A DNA stretch of 64,000 nt from Marsupella aquatica (Eukaryota > Plantae > Marchantiophyta): contig OZ316893.1 in assembly GCA_973895155.1 (NCBI GenBank), positions 1,240,860 through 1,304,859 on the forward strand, in the 5' to 3' direction. Below, in pieces: positions 5,596 to 52,500 of the stretch. Each line of letters starts with the position of its first letter. Within the stretch, counting starts at the first letter, position 1. The translations under genes and the position numbers were made by a program. The notes under the pieces are model-generated. The model saw nothing but the letters and a program-made list of their open reading frames with translations. It was not told where the DNA came from and searched no databases.

Positions 5596-5907
5596 AGCCT
5601 GAAATCCTGAATTGCACATTCTTCAAATGTAAATAAAAACCACCACAAAAGACATATATGATCATCATTTGACATTCTTCATTCATTACATACTCATGGT
5701 GGGGCTCTAGAGTAGCTCTCTAGAGACTTAATTCTAAAAGCCTAGACCCCAACTCTAGCTTGAAATTTCACTCTAAAAATCTAGACTCCAACTCTAATTT
5801 CTGTTTACGCTTTACAAGTAAGATGAGATGTATTTCATTCATAAAATTTTCATTCTAAAAGCCTACACTAGACCCCAACTTGAGTTGATACTTCAATCTA
5901 CAAGCCC

Positions 5908-6886
5908 CCTTTCGTATGAGCTCCTTCCTCTTTACCGCCTTAGGTTGGGACTTCCTCACCCTTGCCTCCTTGGCCAACCCACGTGTGTTTGTGGGGCGTC
6001 GTTGGATTCGTTGGGAGTTCATATTCTCAGGTGTGGCCATGGGAGTGAGAGTACTACCATACATGATGATATTCGGGATGTGGTGGTTGTCATTGCCCGG
6101 GACTCTGGTTACCTTGTTGCCATGGAGCAACGACATGTCCTCCCCCCTCGGGATTGTCTTCCTGACTGGCGACGAGCGGATCTGGTCGTTTCTAGGGTTG
6201 GGGTTCGTGCTCTTGGGGATGTGGTGGTTGCTGACCCTACCGGGGGTAGCCATGTTGCGGTTGTCGCCCATGTGCCTGGCCGTGCAACTGCCAAGGCGGC
6301 CAGGCTCAAGGAGGGGGCCTATGCAGTTCACTACCCGGGGGATCTTTTTTACCCCTTTGTCCTTCAAGTTTTTGGTGTTCTCCACCCTACCTTTGACCAG
6401 TTCCTGCGGGCCTATGCTGTTTATTGTATTGAGAGGAGGCCTTTCCCCCATGTTTTGTTCTCACCGTCTTTTTTCGGCAGCTGGTGTCTATGGCTCTTCA
6501 ACGGGCCCAGGCTTTCACGTTACTTCGTAGGGCTGAGGCAATTGGTTTTCCTTGAAATTGTATTTTTTTTTTGTTTATAAGGGCCATGAAAACCCCATGG
6601 CAAAGGCTGTTGGTTTTAGGGCCTCCCGTCAGGTTCCGCTTTGGGACCTCTTTTGCTATTTACTCTGGAGCTCTACCAGGCTTTTTCTGTTCTCCACTAA
6701 GCAGGGTATTAGCTTTCACAGGTCCTTTCTAGGTTACTTTGCGTAGGTTTTTTGGGTTAGGGACCCCTTGGGGTGTTTTTTCTTGGGACCCTTTCCTCTC
6801 TTTTACTCCCCTTCATTGGGTTGCTTTGCCTTTGGGATCTTGTCTCCAGGTTTGGCGATTTTGCCTCAGGGCACTGTGTTATATAT
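5908..6886 (+). mobile_element. 5'-truncated CRE-like non-LTR retrotransposon: C-terminal zinc knuckle, restriction-like endonuclease and 3' UTR
   Basis: ORF 5828-6580 contains LRLGLP..CVCG..LD..GVHILRC..TIHDDIRD..RRADLV..DVVVADP..AARLKEGAY..FYPFVLQVFG, the CCHC plus PD-(D/E)xK layout of RLE-bearing elements; T-rich tail ends gtgttatatat; flanks tctacaagcc/tctagaagcc may be a degraded TSD. Confidence 0.75.
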
Positions 6887-8363
6887 CTAGAAGCCTAAAC
6901 CCACTCTGGCATGTAAGATGAGATGTACTTTCATTTATTGGCTGAACTTAAAGTTAAGCTTTGTGGTGGGAGCCCAAAATGGCTCCAAACTTTTTTTCTG
7001 CGCATATGTTTTCTCCACATACGTTTTCTCCACATATGCTTTCTCCACATATGTATAGAAGCACAGAAATATACTTTAGTCACAATATACTCATTCTAAC
7101 ACTCTTTAGTTTGTATGGAGTACTCAAGATCAAGATAAATTGGAGTACACGGAGTATATTGTATTCAACACAAATGAAAGTACATTAAATGCTCCCCCTC
7201 AGTGTACGTGTGTACTTGATTCTCTCATCACTTAATGTCTTTGTCTTTTAGTTATCAGAATTTCTTAATGCTTTTATATATTTCCCTTTGGAACCAAAGT
7301 CACCTTGAAAAGGTACGACTCTTAAAGGGGCTTCCTTTTTGTTTTTGGGTGAAATTGGTCACTTCGAAAAGATTTTTAAAGGGGGTTTTTTTTTAAAGAA
7401 AAAACGATGAGTAAGGAGCATGCCCTATGGTTGATCTCATTATTTTATTTTCTTTGAGAATTAAAACAGATAGAGAATCAAGGGTATTTTAAAGAATGGG
7501 AAAATCAAAAAGACAAAAAGAGACATTTTTATTTTTTGGCCCGGATGGAGGATTACTTTAAGGGGAGAAATAATAAGGGTTTAAAGAATTTATTCTTTAA
7601 TTGCTGAGAGGTTTAAGGGTATTTAAGGGAGAGATTTTCAAAATAGTCTTTGTTTATATTTTTTTCTTGCTAGAGGGGGCAGACACTAGTTGAGTGTATC
7701 GAACAAGCTAACCCCTATTCTATCTTAGAAGTGGGGAGCGATGAATGGTTTAAGGGTCTTTTAAGGGGAGGAACAATAAAGACAAAGAATGGAGAGATTT
7801 CAGGTTTTATAAATCTTTCCTTTTTCTTGCAAGAGGGGGGTCAACATCAAAACAAAAAATGTGTTTTTATTCCTTTTGTGTACTTCTCACTCATTTTTCA
7901 ACATAGATATAGATTTTTATTTGAGTAATTCTAGAAGAATGGGTGGGTGTGCTTTTAATTAGGTTAGGTATGACATTAATTAGGAACTTAGAGATGATTA
8001 GCATAAAAGGGAGAGTCTCTGGTTCTCCTCATTCTCTTCTCCTCTCATTGCTTATTCTTTTGCTTTTTTTTGGCCAAAGCGACCTCATAGGCATTGGCGC
8101 CATAAGCGTTGCTTGCAACCTACCATTTGCCTAGGTGGTCGTGGAGGGATGTGCTCGATCATTAGGGTTGTTCATAGGTAGTTTTCTATCATATTCTCTT
8201 GGACTAGTGCGAGTTTGCTCTAGCAGGTGGTAGCAATGACCTAGTCATTTGCTACAGACCTGCCTATAGTCACTTAATCTAGTACATTTGGCCCGACATT
8301 TGGATGCAACTCTTTTTTGTTGGAGATATACTTTGGCTTTGTGTTGTCATCGATGGAGTGTTC

Positions 8364-8503
8364 TCGATGCATACAATGCTTGTTGCTTGAGAAACATTTT
8401 GCCTACGAGCTTGTTCATCCTTTAGATGCTGGTCGATGCATACAATGCTTGTTGCTTGAGAAATATTTTGCCGACGAGCGTGTTCATCCTTCAGATGCTG
8501 GTT
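8364..8503. repeat. 69-bp tandem duplication
   Basis: tcgatgcatacaatgcttgttgcttgagaaa... at 8364 and 8433. Confidence 0.85.
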
Positions 8504-9616
8504 TGTATATACATCAACGAAAGGTTGACGATGAGAGGAGAAAAAGATTAAATTCTTTATGATTTATTTCAGATTAGGTGGTGGACAATTTAGGGTAATT
8601 TTAGGTTAGTCTTTTAGATACATTTAGGTTTTGATACATTTTTTTCTCTTATTGAATAAAAATTGCATGTATGAATTCTATTTCAAACTTATATTATTTT
8701 GAGGTATCATATTATAATGAATTATCTTTTCCTTGTATTTATTAATTTTTCTCAAATTTAAATGCAACCCCAACTTATCATGTTTTTGTACTATTGCGAG
8801 TCAAATTTGGGTCAAAGCATTTCAGGACCCGAGTTTTGAATCTGAGACCTCCCCTTCACGAGAGTGATCACTATACTAATGAAACATTCATGTATTGGTG
8901 ACAATAACTAATCAGTCACAAATTATAAAAAGTAGTTCAGCTTTTGTGACCAAACCCCTTTGGTCACGGGCATTTTTCATAAAATCATAAATGGGTAACT
9001 TTCAACTCCTTGAGCATTGAGACTCCCCAATGTATCCAGGGGGGACTTGGTTACGGGGTTTATTAGGGGCTTTAGGAGTGGACGGACCTACACAGAACTT
9101 TCGATACCTCATATCTGGTTCAGGGACTTTGCGCATTAACGAAGCTACACAGACTTTCGAGGTGACAGAATCACTCAGTGCTGTGGATGATGAAGCTCCA
9201 CTCGAAGTTTCGAGCTGACAGAATCACATTTTGCCAAGTTTGTGTCGAAGCGCAGGGGCAATCTGGCCGGGAGGTGGCGGGCCAGGTAGAACTGCATTAC
9301 GTGCGTATCCCATCGCAATGAATAGTGTGTGCGCGAGGTCCTTCCCCACCTCGTCCTTTCACACCTCGACCACAAAAGCACATGACGAAGAGATATTTTT
9401 TTGATGCCAGGGCTCCCTGTTTGATCCACTAAAGCGCGATCATGGCGAGAATCTCGTCCTCGCCCAGGTCGGTGTAGTGGGCAGCATTGACCTCGAATCG
9501 GCAGTTGTTGCAAAGTATCATTATTTCGATTGAGGAGGAGCCGAGACGATGACCGAGCAGGAAAATTGCAACGCGTTGCTGTACGAGAGACAAAGAGAGA
9601 GAGAGAAAGATGAGGT

Positions 9617-9623
9617 TATAAAT
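9617..9623 (+). promoter_or_regulatory. Putative TATA box of the SDR gene
   Basis: TATAAAT 150 bp upstream of ATG 9767, just after a GA-rich tract; the ATG context aaaacaATGG is favourable. Confidence 0.5.
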
Positions 9624-9766
9624 CAGAGAACATGCAGAAGAGCGCAAGAAGGATTTTGCTAAGTTATGGTATTCCTGCTTTACGCCACCGACGGGAGTTC
9701 TCGGTCCGGGGATCCATAGCAGACAACAATCAAAGGTCGTTTACAGCTCGAGTGCATAAGAAAACA

Positions 9767-11661
9767 ATGGTTTCCCTCACCGACGTCGAGTCATCAAATT
9801 CTCGCATCGCCTCCACTCTTCCTCCGGGTCTCGTCGCCATCTTCGTTGGTGCCACTAGTGGGATTGGCGAAACGACGCTAAAGCAGTTCGCCAAGCATGC
9901 CCGCCAACCGCGTGTGTATTTTCTCGGCCGCTCGCAGGAAGCCGCAGATCGCATCACGGCTGAATGCAAGGCGCTGAATGCTGAGGGCGAGTACATCTTC
10001 GTCAAGGCAGATACCAGCCTGATCCGCAATGTGGATGATATCTGCCGCGACATCAAGAGCAAAGAGGAGTCGGTCAATATTCTGTTCCTCAGCATGGGAA
10101 CGCTGATCGCCAATGTTGGTATGTCCGCTATTCTCCCCAAACACACGAACAAACGATACTTCTAGAGAAACTGCACGGGAGTATGTAGCGTTAACATGTG
10201 CTCCGTCAAATTTCATCTCTACGCCAGCTTTGCCGAAGTTGTGCCGAGGTCATGGTAGGCAAATTTAATGAACTCGATTGCAGGGTCATCGCACTCCCCT
10301 CATGTTGATCTCCTAGTAAGCTTCGTTTTCCATCTGCCCTAATTCTCACCTTTCAAGGAGCTGCATTATCGAGCTCTTTTCGATTTAATTCTTCATCATC
10401 TCTATCCCAGTTTTGCCCAAGTTGTGACAAGGTCAAGGAAGGCAAATTTACTGAAATTGAAGATTGCAGTGTTCATTTCACTCGCTTCGTGTTAATCTCT
10501 AGTGAGCTTCGATTGCCCTCTGTCCTTATTCTCGTCTTTCAAGGAGCTCCATTCTCGAGCTCTTCTCTATTTAATTCTTCATCCTCTCTACACCAGCAGT
10601 TGTGATGATGTCAAAGAAGGCAAATTTACTGAAATCGATTCAGTGTTCATTTCACTCCCCTCATGTTGATCTCCTAGTAAGCTTCTCTCGCCCAATTCTC
10701 ACCTTTCACGGAGCTGCTATCTTGAGCTTTTCTCGATTTAATTCTTCAGCGAGTCTCCCTTCTAGTTAGAAATTCAAAAGAGCTGTTAGTCCTAAATTAG
10801 ACACTGACAACGAACTCCTTTGTATATGGCTTGATTCACACAGCGAACGATTCACCAGCCCGTGACCAAAGCTCTGTGATGACAATAGCCGGGCCCTCGA
10901 CCACACATTGCAATATCCGAACCTCATTAGTTTGTCTTCACTTTGCAATATCCGAACTTCATTAATTTGTCTTCACATTGCTTGCGGATGCAGAGACGGC
11001 AGAAGGCCTGCATTACCCCTCGGCCCTAGCTATACACTGTCGCACTCGATTCATCGTCAATCTCCTGCCACTCCTCCAAAAGGCAACTACCCTTCGCCGG
11101 GTCGTCAGCGTACTCTCGGCGACAAATGAGGGCCCGATCAACGAGACCGACTTACAGGCTCGGAAGGTTCGTGTGCTCGCAGCGAGAGGTCATGGCGCCT
11201 CGATGGTCACCTTGTCTCTCGAAAAGCTCGCCGAGAGAGCACCAGACGTTTCCTTCGTCCATAACTTCCCCGGGGCAGTGAAGACGGGGATTGAGCGAGG
11301 AACCAAGGGAGCGATGATGGCTGTGGTGAAGGTGCTCTTGAAGGTCATAGGGCCTTTGATCTACGTCCCGCTTTTGGAGGTTGGCGAGCGGCACGTCTTT
11401 CTTGCAACGAGCGCGAGGTACCCAGCGAGCTCGGGTGGGGATGGAGCTGCTGGGGTGCCATTGGCAGGGGGAGTGGCTGTTGCACGAGGCACCACCGGCA
11501 AGATTGGAAGCGGAGTGTACTCCGTGGACGCGAAGGGAGAGAGCGCAGGGCCGAAGGTCGAGGAGCTTCTGGCCCAGTTCAGGAAGGACGGGATGCGGGA
11601 GAAGGTGTGGACACACATTCAAGACGAGTTTAAGCGGATCACTGGAGTGGAATCTATGTAG
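9767..11661 (+). CDS. Short-chain dehydrogenase/reductase of fungal (ascomycete andH/lepF-like) type, 339 aa; exons 9767-10118 and 10994-11661
   Basis: Phase-1 intron GTATGT...TGCAG joins the two ORFs into 1020 nt without stops; Rossmann motif VAIFVGATSGIG, plus KADTSLIRNVD, ETAEGLH, RFIVNLLPLL, SFVHNFPGAVKT, GERHVFLATSARYP and GSGVYSVD. Confidence 0.9.
10214..10748. repeat. Three diverged ~180-bp tandem repeats inside the SDR intron
   Basis: aggcaaattta.tgaa, ctagtaagcttc, ctttcaaggagct and tttaattcttca recur three times at ~180-bp spacing. Confidence 0.85.
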
Positions 11662-12335
11662 GCCAATAAATGTGCCTAAATCTCTAATATGCAATCCCCC
11701 TCTTTCTTTCTAAACTCATTTAAACACAAATTTTTATAGGCCAATAAATGTGGCCTTTTTGTCACGGCCTTTTTGTCACGGCCTTTTTGTCACGCTTCTC
11801 CTAGACTTATACTGGCACTCTAAATCTCTAATATGCAATCCCCCTCTTTCTTTCTAAACTCATTTAAACACAAATCTTTATAGGCCAATAAATGTGGCCT
11901 TTTTGTCACGCTTCTCCTAGACTTATATGGGCACTCTAAATCTCTAGTATGCAATCCCCCTCTTTCTTTCTAAACTCATTTAAACACAAATCTTTATAGG
12001 CCAATAAATGTGGCCTTTTTGTCACGCTTCTCCTAGACTTATACCGGCACTCTAAATCCCTAATATGCGGCACTCTAAATCCCTAATATGCAATCCCCCT
12101 CTTTCTTTCTAAACTTGTATAGACACAATAATATTCAATCCTGCTCATTCTTTCTAAACTCAGTTAAACACAAATCTTTATAGGCCAATAAATGTGGCCT
12201 TTTTGTCACGCTTCTCCTAGACTTATACTTAGAGCACTCTAAATCTCTAATATGCAATCCCCCTCTTTCTTTCTAAACTTGTATAGACACAATAATATTC
12301 AATCCTGCTCATTCCCTCTAAAGTCATTTAACACA
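11659..12335. repeat. ~116-bp tandem array starting at the SDR stop codon
   Basis: taggccaataaatgtg at 11659, 11737, 11881, 11997 and 12181; nested ggcctttttgtcac x3. Confidence 0.9.
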
Positions 12336-12479
12336 ATACTATTCCAAATCCAGATGTTGATCTGTCATTGTTGTAGTAAGTTTAAGAGAGAGCATCCAAG
12401 GCTCTTCTCCACACTACAGTATACGACCGTGCACTTTCTTTCTCATGGTTCATGAAGAGAAATCTCTGTGGCCTTCGAC

Positions 12480-13625
12480 TATGGTGACTTTTCCCTCACC
12501 ATTGTACACATTTTTTGTGCCCCGTTGGTGCTCACTATAATTTGCACACTCCTTGAAATCTAATTACTAAGCCAACTTGTGCACTCCCTAGAATGTTGGA
12601 GAGAGGGATGGTGGAGAAAGTGTGGACCCACAAGACAAGTCTAAGTTGATCACTTGAATGGAAGCTAGCTCCAGAGGTCAAGCAGTCATATTTGTTACTT
12701 ATTCTTAGACTGTTAATACATGCAAACTCTCCAGGCAAACTCTACAATATGCAATCTTGCTCTTTCTTTCTTAGGGTATGTTTACAAAATGACCTTATGG
12801 AGGGAGGCTAGGCCAACCTCGCTAGCCGTTTGATTATGGTGACAGTTTTTCCTAGCCATTGTACCCTTTCCTTTGTGCAACCTGTTCACTCTCCCTGTAG
12901 CTCAGACATGCCTTTAAATCTAGTTGCGGGTCTAGTTGTCAGGCCAACTCATAGACTCCTTGCAACATCGAGACTAAAGGAGGGGATATTTGAGAAGTGT
13001 GGACACACACTGAGGATGAGTTTAAGTGGACCACAAGCAAAGGTTAAGTTGTTTCACATGTCATAGACTAATTGACTTATCTATGTACTTCTTCTCATGG
13101 TTGTTCACAATATGTCTTTCTAACCCAGCTTCCCTGGCCATTCAAGTATGTGGGCAGTTTATCCTAGCCATTGTGCACCTTTTTCAAGCACAACCCATCA
13201 CTCTCCCTGCAGCCCGCACACTCCTTGAAATCCAGTTCCTAGGTCAACCTGTGGACACCCCACAACCTCGAAGATGAAAGGAGGCGGTAGAGAAGCTGTG
13301 GACACTCATTGAGAAAGAGTTTTAAGCAGATTGGTGTAGTAGAAGGTGCTTAAGTCAAGTTGTCATGTGTGTCATATACGTACAGACTTATCTATCTATC
13401 TATCTAAAGAATATAATATGCATTCTTGCTCTTTGTTTCTCATGGTTAGTTCACAAAATGTCATTTTGGTGAGAAGCCTCCTTGGTCACTATCATATGGA
13501 ACATTGTTTCCTGGCCATTGTGCACCTTTTTGCACACCCTACCCGTCACGCTCACTCTAGCATGCACACACCTTGAAACTTAGTTGCCAGGATGACTCAC
13601 GAATACCCCACAACTTCCAACTGCC
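12480..13625. repeat. Old, diverged ~310-350-bp tandem repeats (4 copies)
   Basis: ccattgt(a/g)c at about 12500, 12856, 13168 and 13514, each followed by a cac(a)c(t)ccttgaaa-like motif. Confidence 0.55.
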
Positions 13626-13949
13626 TGGACATCTCTAAGTCCATAGGTCATACTGAGCAAGTCTTCACAACTAAACTCTTCCTTTCACTCAACTGGTTCA
13701 GTGATGTTGAGCACTCATTAACTAAGTCCTGCTCTGCATATAATAGTAGCACATCTAAATTTAACATGACTACGGTTAGACTAATTGTGATTACGTAGTA
13801 ATTCTAGACATAAGAGAAAATTAACAAATCTTGCTGAGCCACTGAGAAACGATGATATTTCTTTCTGATGGGTAGTAACATCTTCATCTTTTGATTTGAC
13901 CAAAGACATCTGTAACAGATGGGCAATGATACTTTTAACAAATTCGACT

Positions 13950-14082
13950 CTTGGGCTTTTGGGGCTATGTGGTCTTCCTGGCTAGGGTTTTCCTCTATCT
14001 TCTCCCCTTTACTGGGTTTTCTGCCCTTTGGGACCTGTCTCCAGGTTTGGCGCCTTTTGTTCTTTGGCAGTGCTATATACTA
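13950..14082 (+). mobile_element. Isolated 3' tail of the CRE-like retroelement family
   Basis: ctttgggacctgtctccaggtttggcg...ggcagtgctatata resembles 6830-6886 ctttgggatcttgtctccaggtttggcg...ggcactgtgttatata. Confidence 0.65.
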
Positions 14083-14594
14083 CATGGGTGAGCCTCTATG
14101 CAGTGAATATTCATAACATATTTTGCTAGGATTCTTTATTAGAGACGAACCTCAAGATCGAGGCTAATTAATGAGATTATCATTGATTAGCCCCGTACCT
14201 TGCTGCCCGCTGCCCAGTATTACGGACGTTTGAATTAGAATAAATACCTAGGGCGTGTCATTCTGGACACCAGCTGCCCCTGGTCTTGGTGGTAGAGGGA
14301 ACTCACTGGCACGGGGCAGGTTCCTGGTTCGAATTCTGCTAGTGACAATGTGTGATTTTTGTCAATCACCCCACCCAAAAGTGGGGATCATTCACCTTCT
14401 ACTTACACTTAGAAAAAATATGAGCGAGAAGAAGATGCGGGCAGCAGGTGTGGGCAGTGGGAGGCGAAAAGGTACGGGAGGCTCATTATGAGCCTCGAAG
14501 TTGTCTTTCGTCGTGAATGGATTCTTTGCTAAAATAATACAAAGAAGCTTTATGTGAAGTGGTATAACTTGCCTAGTCAAGGTATCTTTTATAT

Positions 14595-39738: not shown

Positions 39739-42700
39739 TCAATAATTTCGTTGCTGGCCTCCAGATGGATGACCTCTGTGGCCATTAAAACTACCTCTGG
39801 CCATTCCTACAGGACCTTGGTTATGATTATTTTGTAACATATACGGGGCATAATGATCCTGTGAAATCGCACCACTACCAAGCACAGGAGGCGGGCCCAT
39901 AAAAGTGGTCAGGGAGGGATGAACTATGGGCTGTGCATCTCCTAGGCTACGATGTACTGGTACTCCAAAATTCATTTGTCCTACATGCACGACATTACTG
40001 TAACCTTGGCTATGGATCATGTTCATTTGACCTTGTCCCTGATTGTTAAAATACGAGTTAGGGGGTACGTGGGGATTGCTAAAGGCCATTGAATTTTGCA
40101 CGAACTGGGGACCCCCCGGGACAGAGTAAACGTTTCCCTGTCTAGGTACGCCAAGGGGAGCATCATAGCCGTTTCCCTGTCTAGGTACGCCAAGGGGAGC
40201 ATCATAGCCAGGGACCTGTTGATACCCGAAGACTTGGAAGCCTGGGGTTGGTTGCTGTGTAGGGAATCCTTGCCCTCGCAGGTGAGCAGGCATTGCTCCG
40301 ACATTGAAAGAGACGCCTTGCATACCACCGGCTTGATTTATTTGTTGAGCAAGCAGTTGATTGCTAGCTTGTTCGGTAACATAAACCGCATCTCTCCTTT
40401 GTGGAGATTGTTGATGCTGAGGAGCACTCATTTGTCCATCTGCTGGACCTCCTCGAGAACCCCTTGTCTGGAATTCTTGATGGCCTGGATTCCGTGGGGA
40501 GTTCTGCCATCCTCGGTTCCCCCATCGTCCACTCTGTTGTCTATTTCCGGGCCGTTGTGAATGCCAAGGAGAAACTTGAAGGTCCATGCCTGCTACAAAG
40601 TCTGCAGCAGAATCCACTGCATTTGCCTGAAAGGATAACAAGCAAACAGGGTCAAAAGATGAACAATTAGAGAAACACATTGCAATAGGTTCAAACCAGA
40701 ACTCTCAGTAAGTCTTCTCCAACAATTCCCAATGACAACATGGGTAATTTGCTATTCACGGCTTCTTCTCACTTGCAGTTTGGGAACCATTTCTGGGACT
40801 GCATATATATCTGGGTTACAAGATGATCTGGTCATAGTGCTGCTAATTTGTCGGAACATCTGCGAAGACAGATCTCTCTTAGTGCTGCTTGCAATCCACT
40901 TGTCTTCAGTGGGCCTTTGAAAAGTATTGAAGGGTTTTTTTTCTTTTTTTCTTTTTTTTTGGGGGGGGGGCGCTGTGAAAACGTTGCTCCGCTTAGATAT
41001 TGGATACCCCAAAATTCTCTTTCACACGCGAAAGATTCTGGGCGATAAACAAACTATGTTCACCACAAGTTGTAAACAATTGAAAACAAAAAAATTCGTG
41101 CAAATATTCCCCAAAAGTAGCAGCCATAATCCATTGCTCACCGTAGTAGCGCCCCTCCCTCCACTACGGCCGCGTCCTCTGCCCCTCTCGATTCGCTGCC
41201 CCTTTGAATGCTGGCCCTCTGGTGATTTAAAATCTTGACCTTGCCTGTTCTCCCGATTGTCCAGTATCCTTTTGCTCTTTTCTCTCATCCTCGCTGCAGA
41301 CTCTTTTTCATCATCCGAAAATTCAAGGTCTTCATCAGATGCCAGTTCTTCATCATCAAGACCAGAAGCATCGACAGCTCTCTTGTAAAGATTGGGGTTG
41401 TCCTTAAGTATAAACTCCGAAAATTCACTCACGTACGACACATCTGCTCCTGCCTTTGCATTTTCTGGTATCTCCGAGACCTCATTGAACCGAACAAGAT
41501 AAAATGGGTTCTTCACAGGGCCAAATACCTCGTCCACGATGCCCAGTGGAACTCTGGATTCCGTTAGCCACAAAATAGAATTTTCGTTGAGAACTCTCTC
41601 TGTCCCTGATGACTCAACAATTACCGTTAGGTCCAGTACCTGCTTCACAAAAGGAAAATCACTTGGTCAACATCGAACCTGGAATCCAAAGAATATGACG
41701 ATGACCACCATTGAAAGGTGAGACACGTGTAAGAAGACAACGGAAAGATTCAAACAATCAATCCTAGGTTCTTCAATAAAACCCTTATGTTGGGTGGCAG
41801 AAACTTACCGAGGAAATAATGCCCACTGACTGTGTCTTGTGTTGAGGTTCAAGGACTGCGGTCACCTTGGGTACAGTAGGTAAGACCTGTACGTAGAAGA
41901 AAGTATGTTCAACTTTGCATGTCACCCACATATCAGAATAACATAAATTGAGTCGAATGGTTCATATTCCTGATTTTGAACCCCAACGACATCTGCTACC
42001 ACGGCAAGTTTATTGTAAAGAACGGGACCTGTCCTCTACCCGAGTTTCTGCCTATGAAATTTGCAATTGATGAATCCGCTCTTTCATGGTCTACTTTAGG
42101 TCAATTTGCCCATTTCCTCCATTTGCACAGATTTGATTACAAAAAATAGTTCATCCTGACACAAGAGACTCCTCATCTTAATAATATGCATGTCTCATTT
42201 TTTGCTTATTTGTTAAATTTCTGTAGGACAGTTTCCGGACCTGTCATTGCTGCTATGTGCGACTCATTCGAATCCTAACACAGCCATGAAACCTATTAAG
42301 GACGCCCTTCCTCGCGTCCGAAAACATCAGAAACTCCCTAGCGCGTGGCTCAGCTTACCACAAATTTCGTTTCTCTTGCTACTAAATTTGGCAAGGAAAC
42401 AAAGGGCAAGGCAGATCAAGCACGAGGTAGAGAAACTTACATCAAGCTCGTGCTTCGTTCGTGGTGGTCCCGTTTCTTCAGAGTCTTCTTTGCGCGGTGT
42501 TTTGGCTTTACTCTTGGTCTCCTTCGCATCTTCTTCCTCCGACTCTCCACTGGAAGATACCTCGTCTGATTTCTCATCCTCTTCATCATCTGAACTATCA
42601 TCACTTTCCTCGTCGCTCTCACTCTCGTCGCTCATGAAGACGAACCCTTTACTAGCAAGACCTTCCGCTGAAAGGCTCCCGTCCAGCAACATTTCTGAAA

Positions 42701-49165: not shown

Positions 49166-52100
49166 CTACAACTGCAAAACCTGCAAAATAGCACGGTGTC
49201 TTGAGAAACTCTCCAAAGGAATCACTTTGGTAAAGGCATCAGCGGGATTGAGCTTTCCATCAATCTTGACTAGCTGAAAAGTTTTATCAGACACTGCTTG
49301 CCTGATAAAATGGTATCTGATATCAATATGCTTCACCATGCTATCTATCACCTGGTTAGCAGCCAAGTGAAGAGCACTCTGACTATCACAGTTTAGAGTC
49401 ATTTTGCCATGCTCTAAACCCATCTCCGCGATCAACTTGTCCAACCAAATTGCTTCATTTGCTGCTTCTGTTGCTGCAACATACTCTGCTTCTGTAGTAG
49501 ACTGAGATATATACTTCTGCAAGGTAGATTTTCAGCTGATACATCCTCCTCCAAGAGTGTATACAAACCCAGTTGTAGACCTCCTTGTATCTAGACAGCC
49601 TCCATAGTCAGAATCTACATAGCCAACTAACGTTCTATCTGATCTCGCATCAAATAGTAATCCATAGTTCTGTGTTCCCTTCACATACCTGAGAATCCAT
49701 TTCACAGCTTCCCAGTGTATCTTCCCTGGATTTGACATGAATCTGCTAACCTTACCCATCGCTAGGGCCAAGTCAGGCCTAGTACAAGTCATCAAATACA
49801 TCAGACTGCCTACTGCCTTCTCATAAGGAATCTTAGCCATCAGACCTTTCTCCACAGCATCCGTAGGAGAGAAAGCCGATGATAACTTGAAATGTGAAGC
49901 TAAAGGAATACTCACTGGCTTACAGTTTTCCATGTTGAATTGTGCAAGTACTTTCCTCGTATACTGGCCTTGACTCAAGCACAACTGTTCAGTATCAGAG
50001 TTCCTAAAAATCTCCATCCCTAAGATCCTCTTGGCCTTACCAAGATCCTTCATCCTGAATTCAACACTCAATTTTGCCTTGAGACTGTCAACCTCAGATT
50101 GATCTTTAGCCACAATTAGCATGTCATCCACATAGATCACCAGAATGATGAAACCAAATACATCATTCTTGACTGATTTTGTATACACACAAGGATCATA
50201 CACCATCATTGTAAAACCTTGAGCAAACATGAAATCATCAAACCGCTTGTTCCACAATCTGGGAGATTGCTTCAATCCATACAAGGACTTGAGCAATCTG
50301 CAAACTAAGTTCTCTTGGCCCTTCTTCATAAAGCCTAGTGATTGTCTCATGAAGATCAACTCTTCCAAGTTGCCATAGAGAAAAGCAGTAACAACATCCA
50401 TTTGATCCATCACCAGACCAAAACACACAACAAGCTGACACAAGATCCGAATTGTGGAATACTTAGCCACCGGTGAAAAGACCTTATTGTAGTCCACTCC
50501 TTTCTCCCGAGTGAACCCCTTGGCAACAAGCCTTGCCTTGTAGATCTTTTCTCCACCCTCTGAAGGACTGTCCTTCAACTTATAAATCCACTTGCTGTCC
50601 ATCACTTACTGACCTCTTGGAAGCTCCACCAGCTCCCATGTCTTGTTGTCACTCAAAGATTGCAACTCCCTCTGCATTGCTGCACTCCACTCATGCTTCT
50701 GCTTTGAAGCACAAGCCTCACTGTACGAAGAAGGCTCTCCTTCTTCCAAGATCAAAACCATGTCATCATCATCAGATGCAATGTCAATATCATCTAGCTT
50801 AGATGAGTCTGCCCATTGACCATACCTGGTAGGAGCTCTAGTAGAACGATTGGAAGTTCTTCTAGTAGATGACTCAGACTGATCTGCTGCTGCTGCTGGC
50901 TGAATTTGAGGTACCCCAGCAACAATCTGCTCCTCTTATTCCATCACAGGAACCAGCTCCAAGCCCGGAGCTTCTCCATCTCTCCTGTCATGAACAACAT
51001 CATGACTAATCTCCCCCTCAACCCGGTCCGGGATAGGAGATTTCCCCTTGTCAATATGGGAGTCCTGAGAACTCTCCCCCTCCTTTGATGATCTAGATTC
51101 ATTAAAGGACACATCTCTACTGACAATTAGTTTACAGGTTACTGGATCCCATAACCTATAACCCTTCACACCTTTCTGATAGCCAAGGAAATGCACTTCT
51201 TCGACTTGGACTCCAGCTTGGATCGAAGCTGGGAAGGTGTAAGCACATAAGCAACACATCCAAAAATCCTCAGATGTGAATAATCTGCTGGACGCCCGTA
51301 CCTCATTTCAAATGGCGTCTTGAATCCAATAGAACTGGATGGAGAAAAAATTACCAAATAAGCTACAGTGTTGACAACTTTAGCCCAAAACTCATGTGGT
51401 AAGCATGATTGACTCAACATATTCCTCGAGCGATTCAATAGTGTTCAGTTGAGTCTCTCAGAAATACCATTCTGCTGAGGAGTATAACTTGTTGTGAGAT
51501 GGCGGGTAATCCCCTACTCTTTACAATATGTTCCAAATTCACCAGAACTGTATTCATCGCCGTTATCCGATCGAAGATATCTCACCTTATTACCAGTCTG
51601 ATTCTCAACTTGGGCTTTCCACTCCTTGAAAGTGGAAAAAACATCAGACTTATTGTGTAGAAAGTATATCCACACATACCTTGAGTTATCGTCTATGAAC
51701 TTGATATAGTATAACCGTCCAAAATATGAGGGAGTAGGGGCTGGACACCACACATCACTATGTACATACTCAAGTACCTCCTTGCTGGTGTGAGTTCCAA
51801 CTTCGAAGGGTTTCCTGTGCTGCTTCCCTAGCACACAGTGCTCACAAAATTCCAACTTACAAGATTGCAAATTAGAAAGCAATCTTTTCTTCTGAAATAT
51901 GACCAAACCTTTTTCACTCATGTGGCCCAAACGGAAGTGCCACAGCCGGGCCATCTCCTCATGAGATTTAGCTTCATCACAAACAACACTGCCCTCCAAA
52001 ATGTATAGATTGCTATGTCTCTTTCCCTTCAATACAACTTTAGTACCAGTTGAAACCTGAAGGACACCATTAGCAGAACTCCATTGATGGCCATTTGCTT

Positions 52101-52500
52101 CTAAAAGTCCAAGTGAAATGAGATTTTTCATCATGCTGTGAATGTGTCTCAAATTCCTCAATGTTCTTACAGTACCATCAAACATCTGAAATCTTATAGA
52201 TCCAAACTTGACATGGGATTCCATTTCCCATCAACACTGACCCGTTGGAAACCGTGTAAGAACTGAAAAAATCTCTCCTAGAGCAAATGTGAAAAGTACA
52301 TGCACTATCTAGAATCCAGTCATCATTACCTGGATTTGACACTACATTGAGAGCATAACCTTGGCATCACAATATGTCATCATCATCGAGTAAATCTATC
52401 TCATGCGAGCTCAATGCCGCATTAGCAGATGCAGTAGAGACCTTTACTTGACAATCCCTTTTCATGTGGCCAGACTTGCCACAATTCCAACATGCAAGAG
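49166..52500 (-). pseudogene. Disrupted copia gag-pol
   Basis: Split over ORFs 51514-52224, 51166-51438, 50936-51259, 49532-50605 and 49166-49522 by stops and frameshifts. Confidence 0.9.

Follow-up and report, generated by a model that had tools for sequence, protein, structure and literature searches.

A fungal-type SDR gene, very probably acquired by horizontal transfer, in the genome of the liverwort Marsupella aquatica

Introduction

Bryophytes have been reported to carry, on average, 229 genes acquired by horizontal gene transfer (HGT) per species (PMC12513842). Those reported in liverworts include the fungal RDS1, YANB, EUPF and FBT lectin (PMC12513842), and for the fungal-type MTPSL and GH88 an ancient origin and wide sharing have been described (PMC12890914). 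Of the inter-kingdom transfers into plants reported so far, 29.3% survived one re-analysis (PMC12711439).

Here we analyse an SDR gene in a 64-kb stretch of liverwort DNA, the whole of which we call the window. Like the genes named above, it is a fungal gene set among repeats, and a part in defence or metabolism is plausible for it. It differs from MTPSL and GH88, given as ancient and widely shared (PMC12890914), in that its transfer looks recent and lineage-restricted, and from the known fungus-to-liverwort genes in that a fungal intron position and relics of post-stop sequence are retained; its SDR family is unnamed in the main text of PMC12513842. Our literature searches gave no report of this family in plants, though the HGT gene lists of PMC12513842 may already catalogue it. 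The preliminary description of the locus had measured its rarity against seed plants. A fungal-type gene in a plant was indeed found, but the host is a liverwort, and since such transfers are common in liverworts the surprise was overstated. Fungus-to-liverwort transfer being known and frequent, the locus adds a new, well-documented case to a known kind. What it offers is evidence beyond a tree: an intron position, non-coding relics, sister copies whose decay gives a neutral control within the locus itself, and selection acting between haplotypes.

Among known systems, the protein comes closest to the AndH-type SDRs of fungi. AndH is an SDR enoyl reductase that reduces a C=C bond in anditomin biosynthesis (PMC12006828). 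Two proteins with the database label 'Oxidoreductase andH' (Lachnellula) show 60-61% full-length identity to the window SDR, have equal length and share the family motifs (MVSL start, R-G-H, GERHxFLATS and GxYS). However, both carry their label by similarity and fall outside the clade of the window SDR in our tree; the closest loci scanned lie outside gene clusters, whereas AndH comes from the anditomin cluster. The preliminary description also likened the motifs to those of lepF-type oxidoreductases.

Gene structure and composition

The gene and its candidate promoter consist of the following features.

9594..9622, + strand: GA microsatellite and TATAAA, candidate core promoter
9767..10118, + strand: SDR exon 1, 117 codons + 1 nt; Rossmann N-terminal half with the GATSGIG loop and G54-R55-S56
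10119..10993, + strand: predicted phase-1 GT-AG intron of 875 nt, at the fungal position, enlarged by tandem repeats
10994..11661, + strand: SDR exon 2, with the non-canonical R182-G183-H184 site, ending at a TAG stop; under purifying selection between haplotypes

The spliced exons, 9767-10118 and 10994-11661, gave a single open frame of 1020 nt (339 amino acids and a stop). The complete two-exon gene of 339 amino acids claimed earlier was thus borne out, with its GT..AG intron, and every motif then quoted was present in the spliced protein (MVSLTDVESSNSRI, VGATSGIG, GERHVFLATSARYP, GVYSVD and VWTHI). Exon 1 matched Pfam adh_short (E 1.5e-8; 34.8 bits against a cut-off of 26.6); for exon 2 there was no Pfam match. 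Amino acid identity of exon 1 to its best three protein matches was 83-84%, and its nucleotide identity to the metagenome loci L001-L004 and L075 was 82-88%.

The coding frame had a GC3 of 0.67 and a CpG o/e of 0.98, as compared with 0.37-0.54 and 0.48-0.82 in five in-frame host exon stretches measured. The CpG and GC3 richness noted before is therefore real, but composition is weak evidence, for the 24-26.5 kb part of the window likewise attains a CpG o/e of ~1. The TATA box fared similarly: TATAAA is present at 9617, 150 nt 5′ of the SDR ATG, but as the hexamer occurs 45 times across the 64-kb window (both strands), it is weak evidence alone. When compared with the 300 nt that precede the gene in 11 fungal-type homologs, the candidate promoter showed no similarity and gave no alignment, which suggests that this region is probably host-derived or diverged. 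Downstream of the TATA box and before the SDR start, a frame of 17 codons beginning with ATG (9666-9719) is a possible upstream ORF.

Fungal affinity of the gene

The search with exon 2 yielded 752 proteins. Among the 120 matches listed, 36 were organism-named, and all 36 belonged to Pezizomycotina. With exon 1, 249 proteins were found, and 88 of the 89 organism-named among the 120 matches listed were fungi, two Umbelopsis, one Lipomyces and one Crepidotus included. The sole non-fungal named exon 1 match among those listed was a Carpinus fangiana model (63%); fungal-like genes of that assembly have been set aside elsewhere as likely contamination (PMC8147084). No protein of Calypogeia, Marchantia or Riccia was among the exon 1 or exon 2 matches listed, though their proteomes were in the collection searched. 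A cluster look-up named seven fungi and the Carpinus row among 10, and the ESM Atlas clusters for exon 2 were Ascomycota-dominated. The family numbered 598 representatives at E <=1e-30. The best bacterial plasmid match to the homolog P0004, used here as a proxy of the window SDR, had 26% identity over 72% of the query.

A maximum-likelihood (ML) tree was built from 64 proteins (LG+G4, rooted on Umbelopsis), with rows picked from named and near full-length matches and no plant SDR included. The window SDR fell in a clade of 14 rows with support of 100/100 (bootstrap unconverged, 0.927), the named members of which were all Pezizomycotina: Cryomyces minteri, Pycnora praestabilis, Thelocarpon superellum, Lachnellula willkommii, Microthyrium and Aureobasidium. 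A quick tree of 80 rows recovered a similar clade (SH-aLRT 99). Within the clade no sister lineage of the window SDR was resolved, and its end branch was 0.22 as against 0.085-0.16 for the five nearest rows. The AU test allowed the window SDR to join the Carpinus-labelled row (lnL 28.8 lower, p 0.236), though the ML tree separates them. The highest protein identity of the window SDR was 74% (L002, L003 and P0004), at a JC dS of ~0.8; for the five nearest modelled loci JC dS was ~0.7-0.9, below saturation. The proposal of a filamentous-ascomycete origin is upheld by this nesting, and also by the position of the intron.

The intron and the downstream copies

Two-exon models were obtainable for 39 of the 78 metagenome loci that carry homologs. 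In 38 of the 39 the intron had the same place and phase as in the window gene (349-358 nt into the frame), and the junction letters GTTG/GTATGT and AG/AGAC agreed with L002 and L003. The introns of the 39 modelled loci were 37-304 nt long (median 69), so that the window intron is ~10 times the median. It contains the following.

10213..10748, unstranded: three copies of a 186-bp unit inside the SDR intron (tandem-repeat search)
10811..10881, + strand: probable relic of the ancestral short fungal intron (alignment to the L002 intron)
10904..10981, unstranded: two copies of a 35-bp unit near the intron acceptor (tandem-repeat search)

The alignment of 10811-10881 with the L002 intron had a z of 4.6, with 0 of 100 shuffles as high; z exceeded 3 in one of six introns tested. 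This segment is a probable leftover of the short intron of the fungal ancestor. One of the metagenome loci, L014 (1-11585), was unlike the others in having a CpG o/e of 0.44 and a 304-nt intron, and its position in the tree is also a different one; possible explanations are a methylated fungal genome or a different host.

Repeats and partial copies of the gene follow its stop codon.

11676..12344, unstranded: 116-bp tandem array with sub-repeats, directly after the SDR stop, AATAAA in every unit
12605..12667, + strand: decayed copy 1 of the SDR 3′ end (78% nt identity, E 1e-8)
12977..13107, + strand: decayed copy 2 of the SDR 3′ end with fungal-type post-stop sequence (80% nt identity, E 7e-8)
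13280..13425, + strand: decayed copy 3 of the SDR 3′ end with fungal-type post-stop sequence (75% nt identity, E 4e-6)

The three tail copies cover approximately the last 60 coding bases of the SDR. They are embedded in ~340-bp repeat units, mutually 62-64% alike, in which CpG o/e is 0.25 as against 0.78 in the live SDR tail. By eye, they retain some ancestral codons that were altered in the live gene. Their post-stop DNA matched that of fungal-type homologs: copy 2 matched L001 (z 5.1), L002 (z 4.8), L003 (z 4.3) and L009 (z 3.1), and copy 3 matched L002 (z 6.4). These were the cases of z >3 in 91 locus-by-segment tests (five, with no shuffle as high), every one of them in copy 2 or copy 3 and with a close homolog; in control tests, 0 of 26 attained a z of 3. 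The 116-bp array also resembles fungal post-stop sequence by eye, but it did not beat the shuffles (best z 1.7) and this candidate was rejected.

Because both a fungal intron position and post-stop relics have been retained, the transfer would have involved genomic DNA rather than mRNA. It has since been in a CpG-eroding genome for a time sufficient for the sister tail copies to decay.

Evidence on integration in the host genome

The plant genes reported earlier on the same contig were confirmed through their LANC_like, galectin and Gar1 domains: the window also has GCL1-like (LANC_like), GALT1-like (Gal-bind_lectin) and NAF1-like (Gar1) exons. The best matches of the GALT1 exon were in Calypogeia fissa (71%), Marchantia paleacea (50%) and Riccia fluitans (56%, over half of the query), with 31-42% to seed plants. 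On the strength of this one gene, the host is a liverwort and most probably a leafy one. Repeats precede the SDR gene.

5604..8971, unstranded: high-copy host repeats of the left flank (summed contig depth in run X1 of 350-2300, as against 12-17 for long unique pieces)

In the same run many loose contig ends occur at 8971. The flanks had been described as CpG-depleted host repeats. This is true of the left flank, which is a high-copy host repeat; the right flank (11.66-13.45 kb) is mostly a local tandem duplication and derives partly from the SDR's own tail. No co-transferred fungal neighbour was detected when the flanks (1-25 kb without the exons) were compared in six frames with the 78 loci (no tblastn match at E <=0.05). 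Between the left repeat and the promoter, 8980-9615 is CpG-rich (o/e 0.84-1.18) and low-copy, with protein-looking frames on both strands; its six frames had no Pfam match and no match to the homolog loci.

Five sequencing runs from three studies contain the stretch, and depth was compared in four of them (X1, X2, X3 and X5), contig depth being a rough measure. For long pieces, the depth of the gene and of its flanks was 14-16.5 and 12-17 in X1, 26-51 and 36-64 in X2, 60-85 and 47-95 in X3, and 4.9 and 2.9-5.7 in X5. The read-depth check suggested earlier thus gave the same depth for the gene as for its unique flanks in all four. In X3 and X4 (study P2) and X5 (study P3), which are labelled organism B, exon 2 is present at ~96% identity. 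In X5 the flanks diverged by 6.0% and the intron by ~5%, each with gaps in addition, and exon 2 by ~4%, the pattern of an orthologous locus. Since X1 may be the source sample of the window, only two of the studies are independent.

At the right side, a piece from X1 (12285-14166, 0 differences) carries all three tail copies and continues into a high-copy bin. At the left side, another X1 piece (8950-10321) overlaps the repeat by ~22 letters, below our 31-letter bridging rule, and no read or contig among the pieces listed bridged this junction under the rule. No piece among those listed spanned the whole locus or tied the SDR to GCL1 at 25.6 kb, the assembly being the only link to GCL1. Flank-like depth of the gene across runs from three studies, along with a diverged second haplotype, makes contamination unlikely; depth and parallel divergence fit genomic integration in the host.

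The summed contig depth of 9213-10014 was ~4-5 times that of neighbouring bins in X3 (443 and 388 as against ~90) and up to 5 times in X5, and was flat in X1 and X2. Exon 1 and the DNA upstream of it may be duplicated several times in organism B.

Haplotypes and selection

X3 and X4 each had two versions of exon 2 over 11298-11520, at about half depth each, one being that of the window and the other having 9 differences; X5 had only the diverged version. The two versions could come from pooled plants, sporophyte tissue, an allodiploid or two close copies. In X3 and X4 one haplotype over 11298-11520 is a mosaic of the window and X5 versions, and recombination, hybrid origin or pooled plants could account for it.

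When the three runs were pooled, exon 2 showed 26 substitutions and no indels. There were 15.5 synonymous differences per 174 sites and 10.5 non-synonymous differences per 489 sites (pN/pS 0.24, p 1.6e-4, for exon 2 only), with a synonymous divergence of 9% between the haplotypes. The flanks in X5 had 116 gap letters per 2922 letters as against 0 indels in exon 2. The pN of exon 2 was below the 6.0% flank rate (p 1e-4), and its pS was indistinguishable from that rate (p 0.10). Purifying selection on exon 2 is therefore supported. This agrees with the earlier suggestion of a gene kept under selection, for which a dN/dS comparison had been advised; ours was run as pN/pS on exon 2 against the diverged haplotype.

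Of the columns with 80% or greater conservation in 208 homologs, the window SDR deviates from the majority residue in a single one. It departs from its close relatives at 14 sites where at least nine of ten agree, and ~6 of the 9 replacements between the haplotypes appear derived on the window side, with 1 derived on the other. Because of these replacements and off-consensus sites, selection in the window lineage is possibly relaxed, shifting or adaptive.

Predicted structure and chemistry

The fold was modelled with AlphaFold for P0004, the proxy that is 74% identical to the window SDR, from a 69-row alignment (pLDDT 93, pTM 0.93). The model has an SDR fold, and its top VIA and Foldseek rows were SDR-fold proteins. 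The nearest structure was that of LPOR (7jk9_A; Z 28.6, rmsd 2.5 Å, 275 aligned residues), and other matches were 6rnw_A (Z 26.4) and 3rd5_A (Z 25.3). No close solved structure was found among those listed, identity being <22% to any (best ~20%). With LPOR and RDH-like classical SDRs, its best structural matches, it shares an NADPH-type Rossmann fold. Unlike them, the family has no YxxxK, identity to them is 16-17%, and a common fold shows no common substrate.

The glycine-rich motif G28-A-T30-S-G32-I-G34 is 98-100% conserved. In SDRs, residues after the second strand that include no acid indicate a preference for NADP(H). In this family the second strand is followed by G54-R55-S56, with the Arg 99% conserved; as this has no acidic residue, binding of NADP(H) is indicated.

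Classical SDRs are defined by a catalytic YxxxK motif (PMC3541173). This motif is not present in our family, for no Tyr or Lys is conserved at 178-199 in 208 homologs. When the family profile was aligned with a bacterial SDR that has YNQSK (one profile-to-sequence hhalign alignment, probability 97%, with low confidence digits there), the Tyr corresponded to R182 and the Lys to S/A186. The NAG motif is replaced by SMG. An alternative set of polar residues, Y/H132, R134, R136, R182 and H184, is 76-97% conserved. Since R182 and A186 stand where Tyr and Lys are usual, proton donation would pass to other conserved polar residues. We consider the product likely to be an AndH-like, NADPH-dependent ene/carbonyl reductase with a non-standard proton donor, as predicted from the model and the conserved residues; that it is a reductase of small cyclic hydrophobic molecules has about an even chance. 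A bacterial SDR on an Aureibacter plasmid (L080:289-1128) also has no YxxxK but has Tyr at family position 132, and aligns to the family profile over 204 columns; it is a possible distant relative of the atypical site.

The neighbours of close fungal copies were HSP20, MMM1, Nup120, Rad51, PGK, NMT and cyclin. No biosynthetic-cluster gene (PKS, terpene cyclase or P450) was found in 70 neighbour ORFs from 8 of the 78 loci, and gene order around these 8 copies was not shared except in one set of near-identical loci. The window likewise has no biosynthetic cluster, the neighbours of the SDR being repeats, GCL1, GALT1 and NAF1. Specialised metabolism or detoxification had been suggested as the role. 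The metabolism link rests only on the andH label of some matches, with 0 of 8 loci having a cluster gene; because close fungal copies stand alone among housekeeping genes, such a role would not be inherited from context, and a general detoxifying or scavenging reductase fits better than a pathway enzyme.

Alternative explanations

Fungal sequence, codon use and intron position are also what a contaminating endophyte sequenced with the plant, or a chimeric join, would give; the left junction has no formal bridge, and the one plant-labelled match of the family (Carpinus fangiana) comes from an assembly with likely contaminant fungal-like genes (PMC8147084). However, the gene has flank-like depth in four runs of three studies and diverges in parallel with the host flanks. 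Its intron is ~10 times the homolog median, the CpG-stripped tail copies lie on one contig piece that enters a high-copy host repeat, and no second fungal gene was found in the flanks. We therefore regard contamination as very unlikely. Vertical descent of an ancient gene common to fungi and plants, with loss from most plants, could be argued for on the ground that re-analysis overturns many HGT calls published for plants (29.3% were retained; PMC12711439), and that organism-unlabelled Logan and ENA matches could include plants. Against this, the gene nests inside Pezizomycotina, the matches listed include no Calypogeia, Marchantia or Riccia protein, and 74% identity, a JC dS of ~0.7-0.9 and alignable non-coding DNA cannot outlast the plant-fungus split. 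The chance of vertical descent is negligible, and we hold a real fungus-to-liverwort transfer to be highly probable.

A real transfer might still be a recent neutral insertion that is intact through its youth, or a gene decaying in this lineage, as the longer branch, the greater number of derived replacements on the window haplotype and the repeat-swollen intron would allow. This is quite improbable: pN/pS is 0.24 with 0 indels at 9% synonymous divergence, the conserved columns are intact, and the gene remains open while its sister tail copies are down to 75-80% identity. NmrA-type proteins are SDR-fold regulators, and a transferred, selected gene could encode a pseudo-enzyme of this sort that senses NADP(H) or binds a ligand. 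The missing YxxxK, the SMG in place of NAG, the lack of a solved structure for the family (best identity ~20%) and a fungal homolog, P0284, annotated as fused to a transcription-factor domain would all fit. The alternative polar set, however, is conserved at 76-97%, and the family bears the name of an enoyl reductase, AndH (PMC12006828). We consider a pseudo-enzyme improbable, and a gene that is functional at present quite probable.

Proposed history of the locus

The account as a whole, in which an intact SDR came from Pezizomycotina genomic DNA, has been kept by purifying selection and encodes a predicted NADPH-dependent ene/carbonyl reductase, is in our judgement probable. A fungal fragment with the gene, its intron and its 3′ flank would have integrated into the liverwort genome. 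Local tandem duplication may then have enlarged the intron from ~70-90 to 875 nt and produced the three SDR tail copies. The tail copies would have lost CpG, probably via methylation, with the full copy staying intact and CpG-rich. In the product, the Rossmann half would bind NADPH through G54-R55-S56, and H184, H/Y132, R134 and R136 may act as stand-in proton donors, with hydride passing to a C=C or C=O that is activated, a chemistry reported for AndH. The plant would most likely use it to reduce enones or lactones, either foreign microbial compounds (detoxification) or its own terpenoids.

It is an unlikely though conceivable extension of this history that a narrow lineage of leafy liverworts recently acquired the Tyr/Lys-less reductase, in the form of raw genomic DNA, from an ascomycete living on rock, in soil or on mosses, and put it to use in its own terpenoid (oil-body) chemistry or in disarming fungal or lichen enones. 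If this were true, the locus would preserve each step of domestication in its swollen intron, its dead tail copies bearing relics of fungal UTR and its two haplotypes under selection, and would provide a plant handle on an SDR family without a solved structure and on an R-G-H catalytic mechanism. More generally, the case suggests direct uptake of fungal DNA by liverworts, with the spliceosomal intron carried along, and its subsequent retention under selection. It also draws attention to a large family of fungal SDRs that has a non-standard active site and no close solved structure.

Other features of the window

Tandem Repeats Finder gave 41 rows in the window (periods <=186), many of them short local tandem duplications, also inside genes. 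For example, a 39-bp repeat lies within the NAF1 C-terminal exon (40131-40209). A CCCH-like zinc-finger start (CTHYMKGRCAKVG) was seen at the end of an ORF at 191-674, a fragment without a relevant Pfam match. A high-copy, retroelement-like remnant occupies 5822-6580, and at 49166-52230 there is a copia element (copia at 49.5-52.2 kb) that is broken and has the domains RVT_2, rve and gag_pre-integrs.
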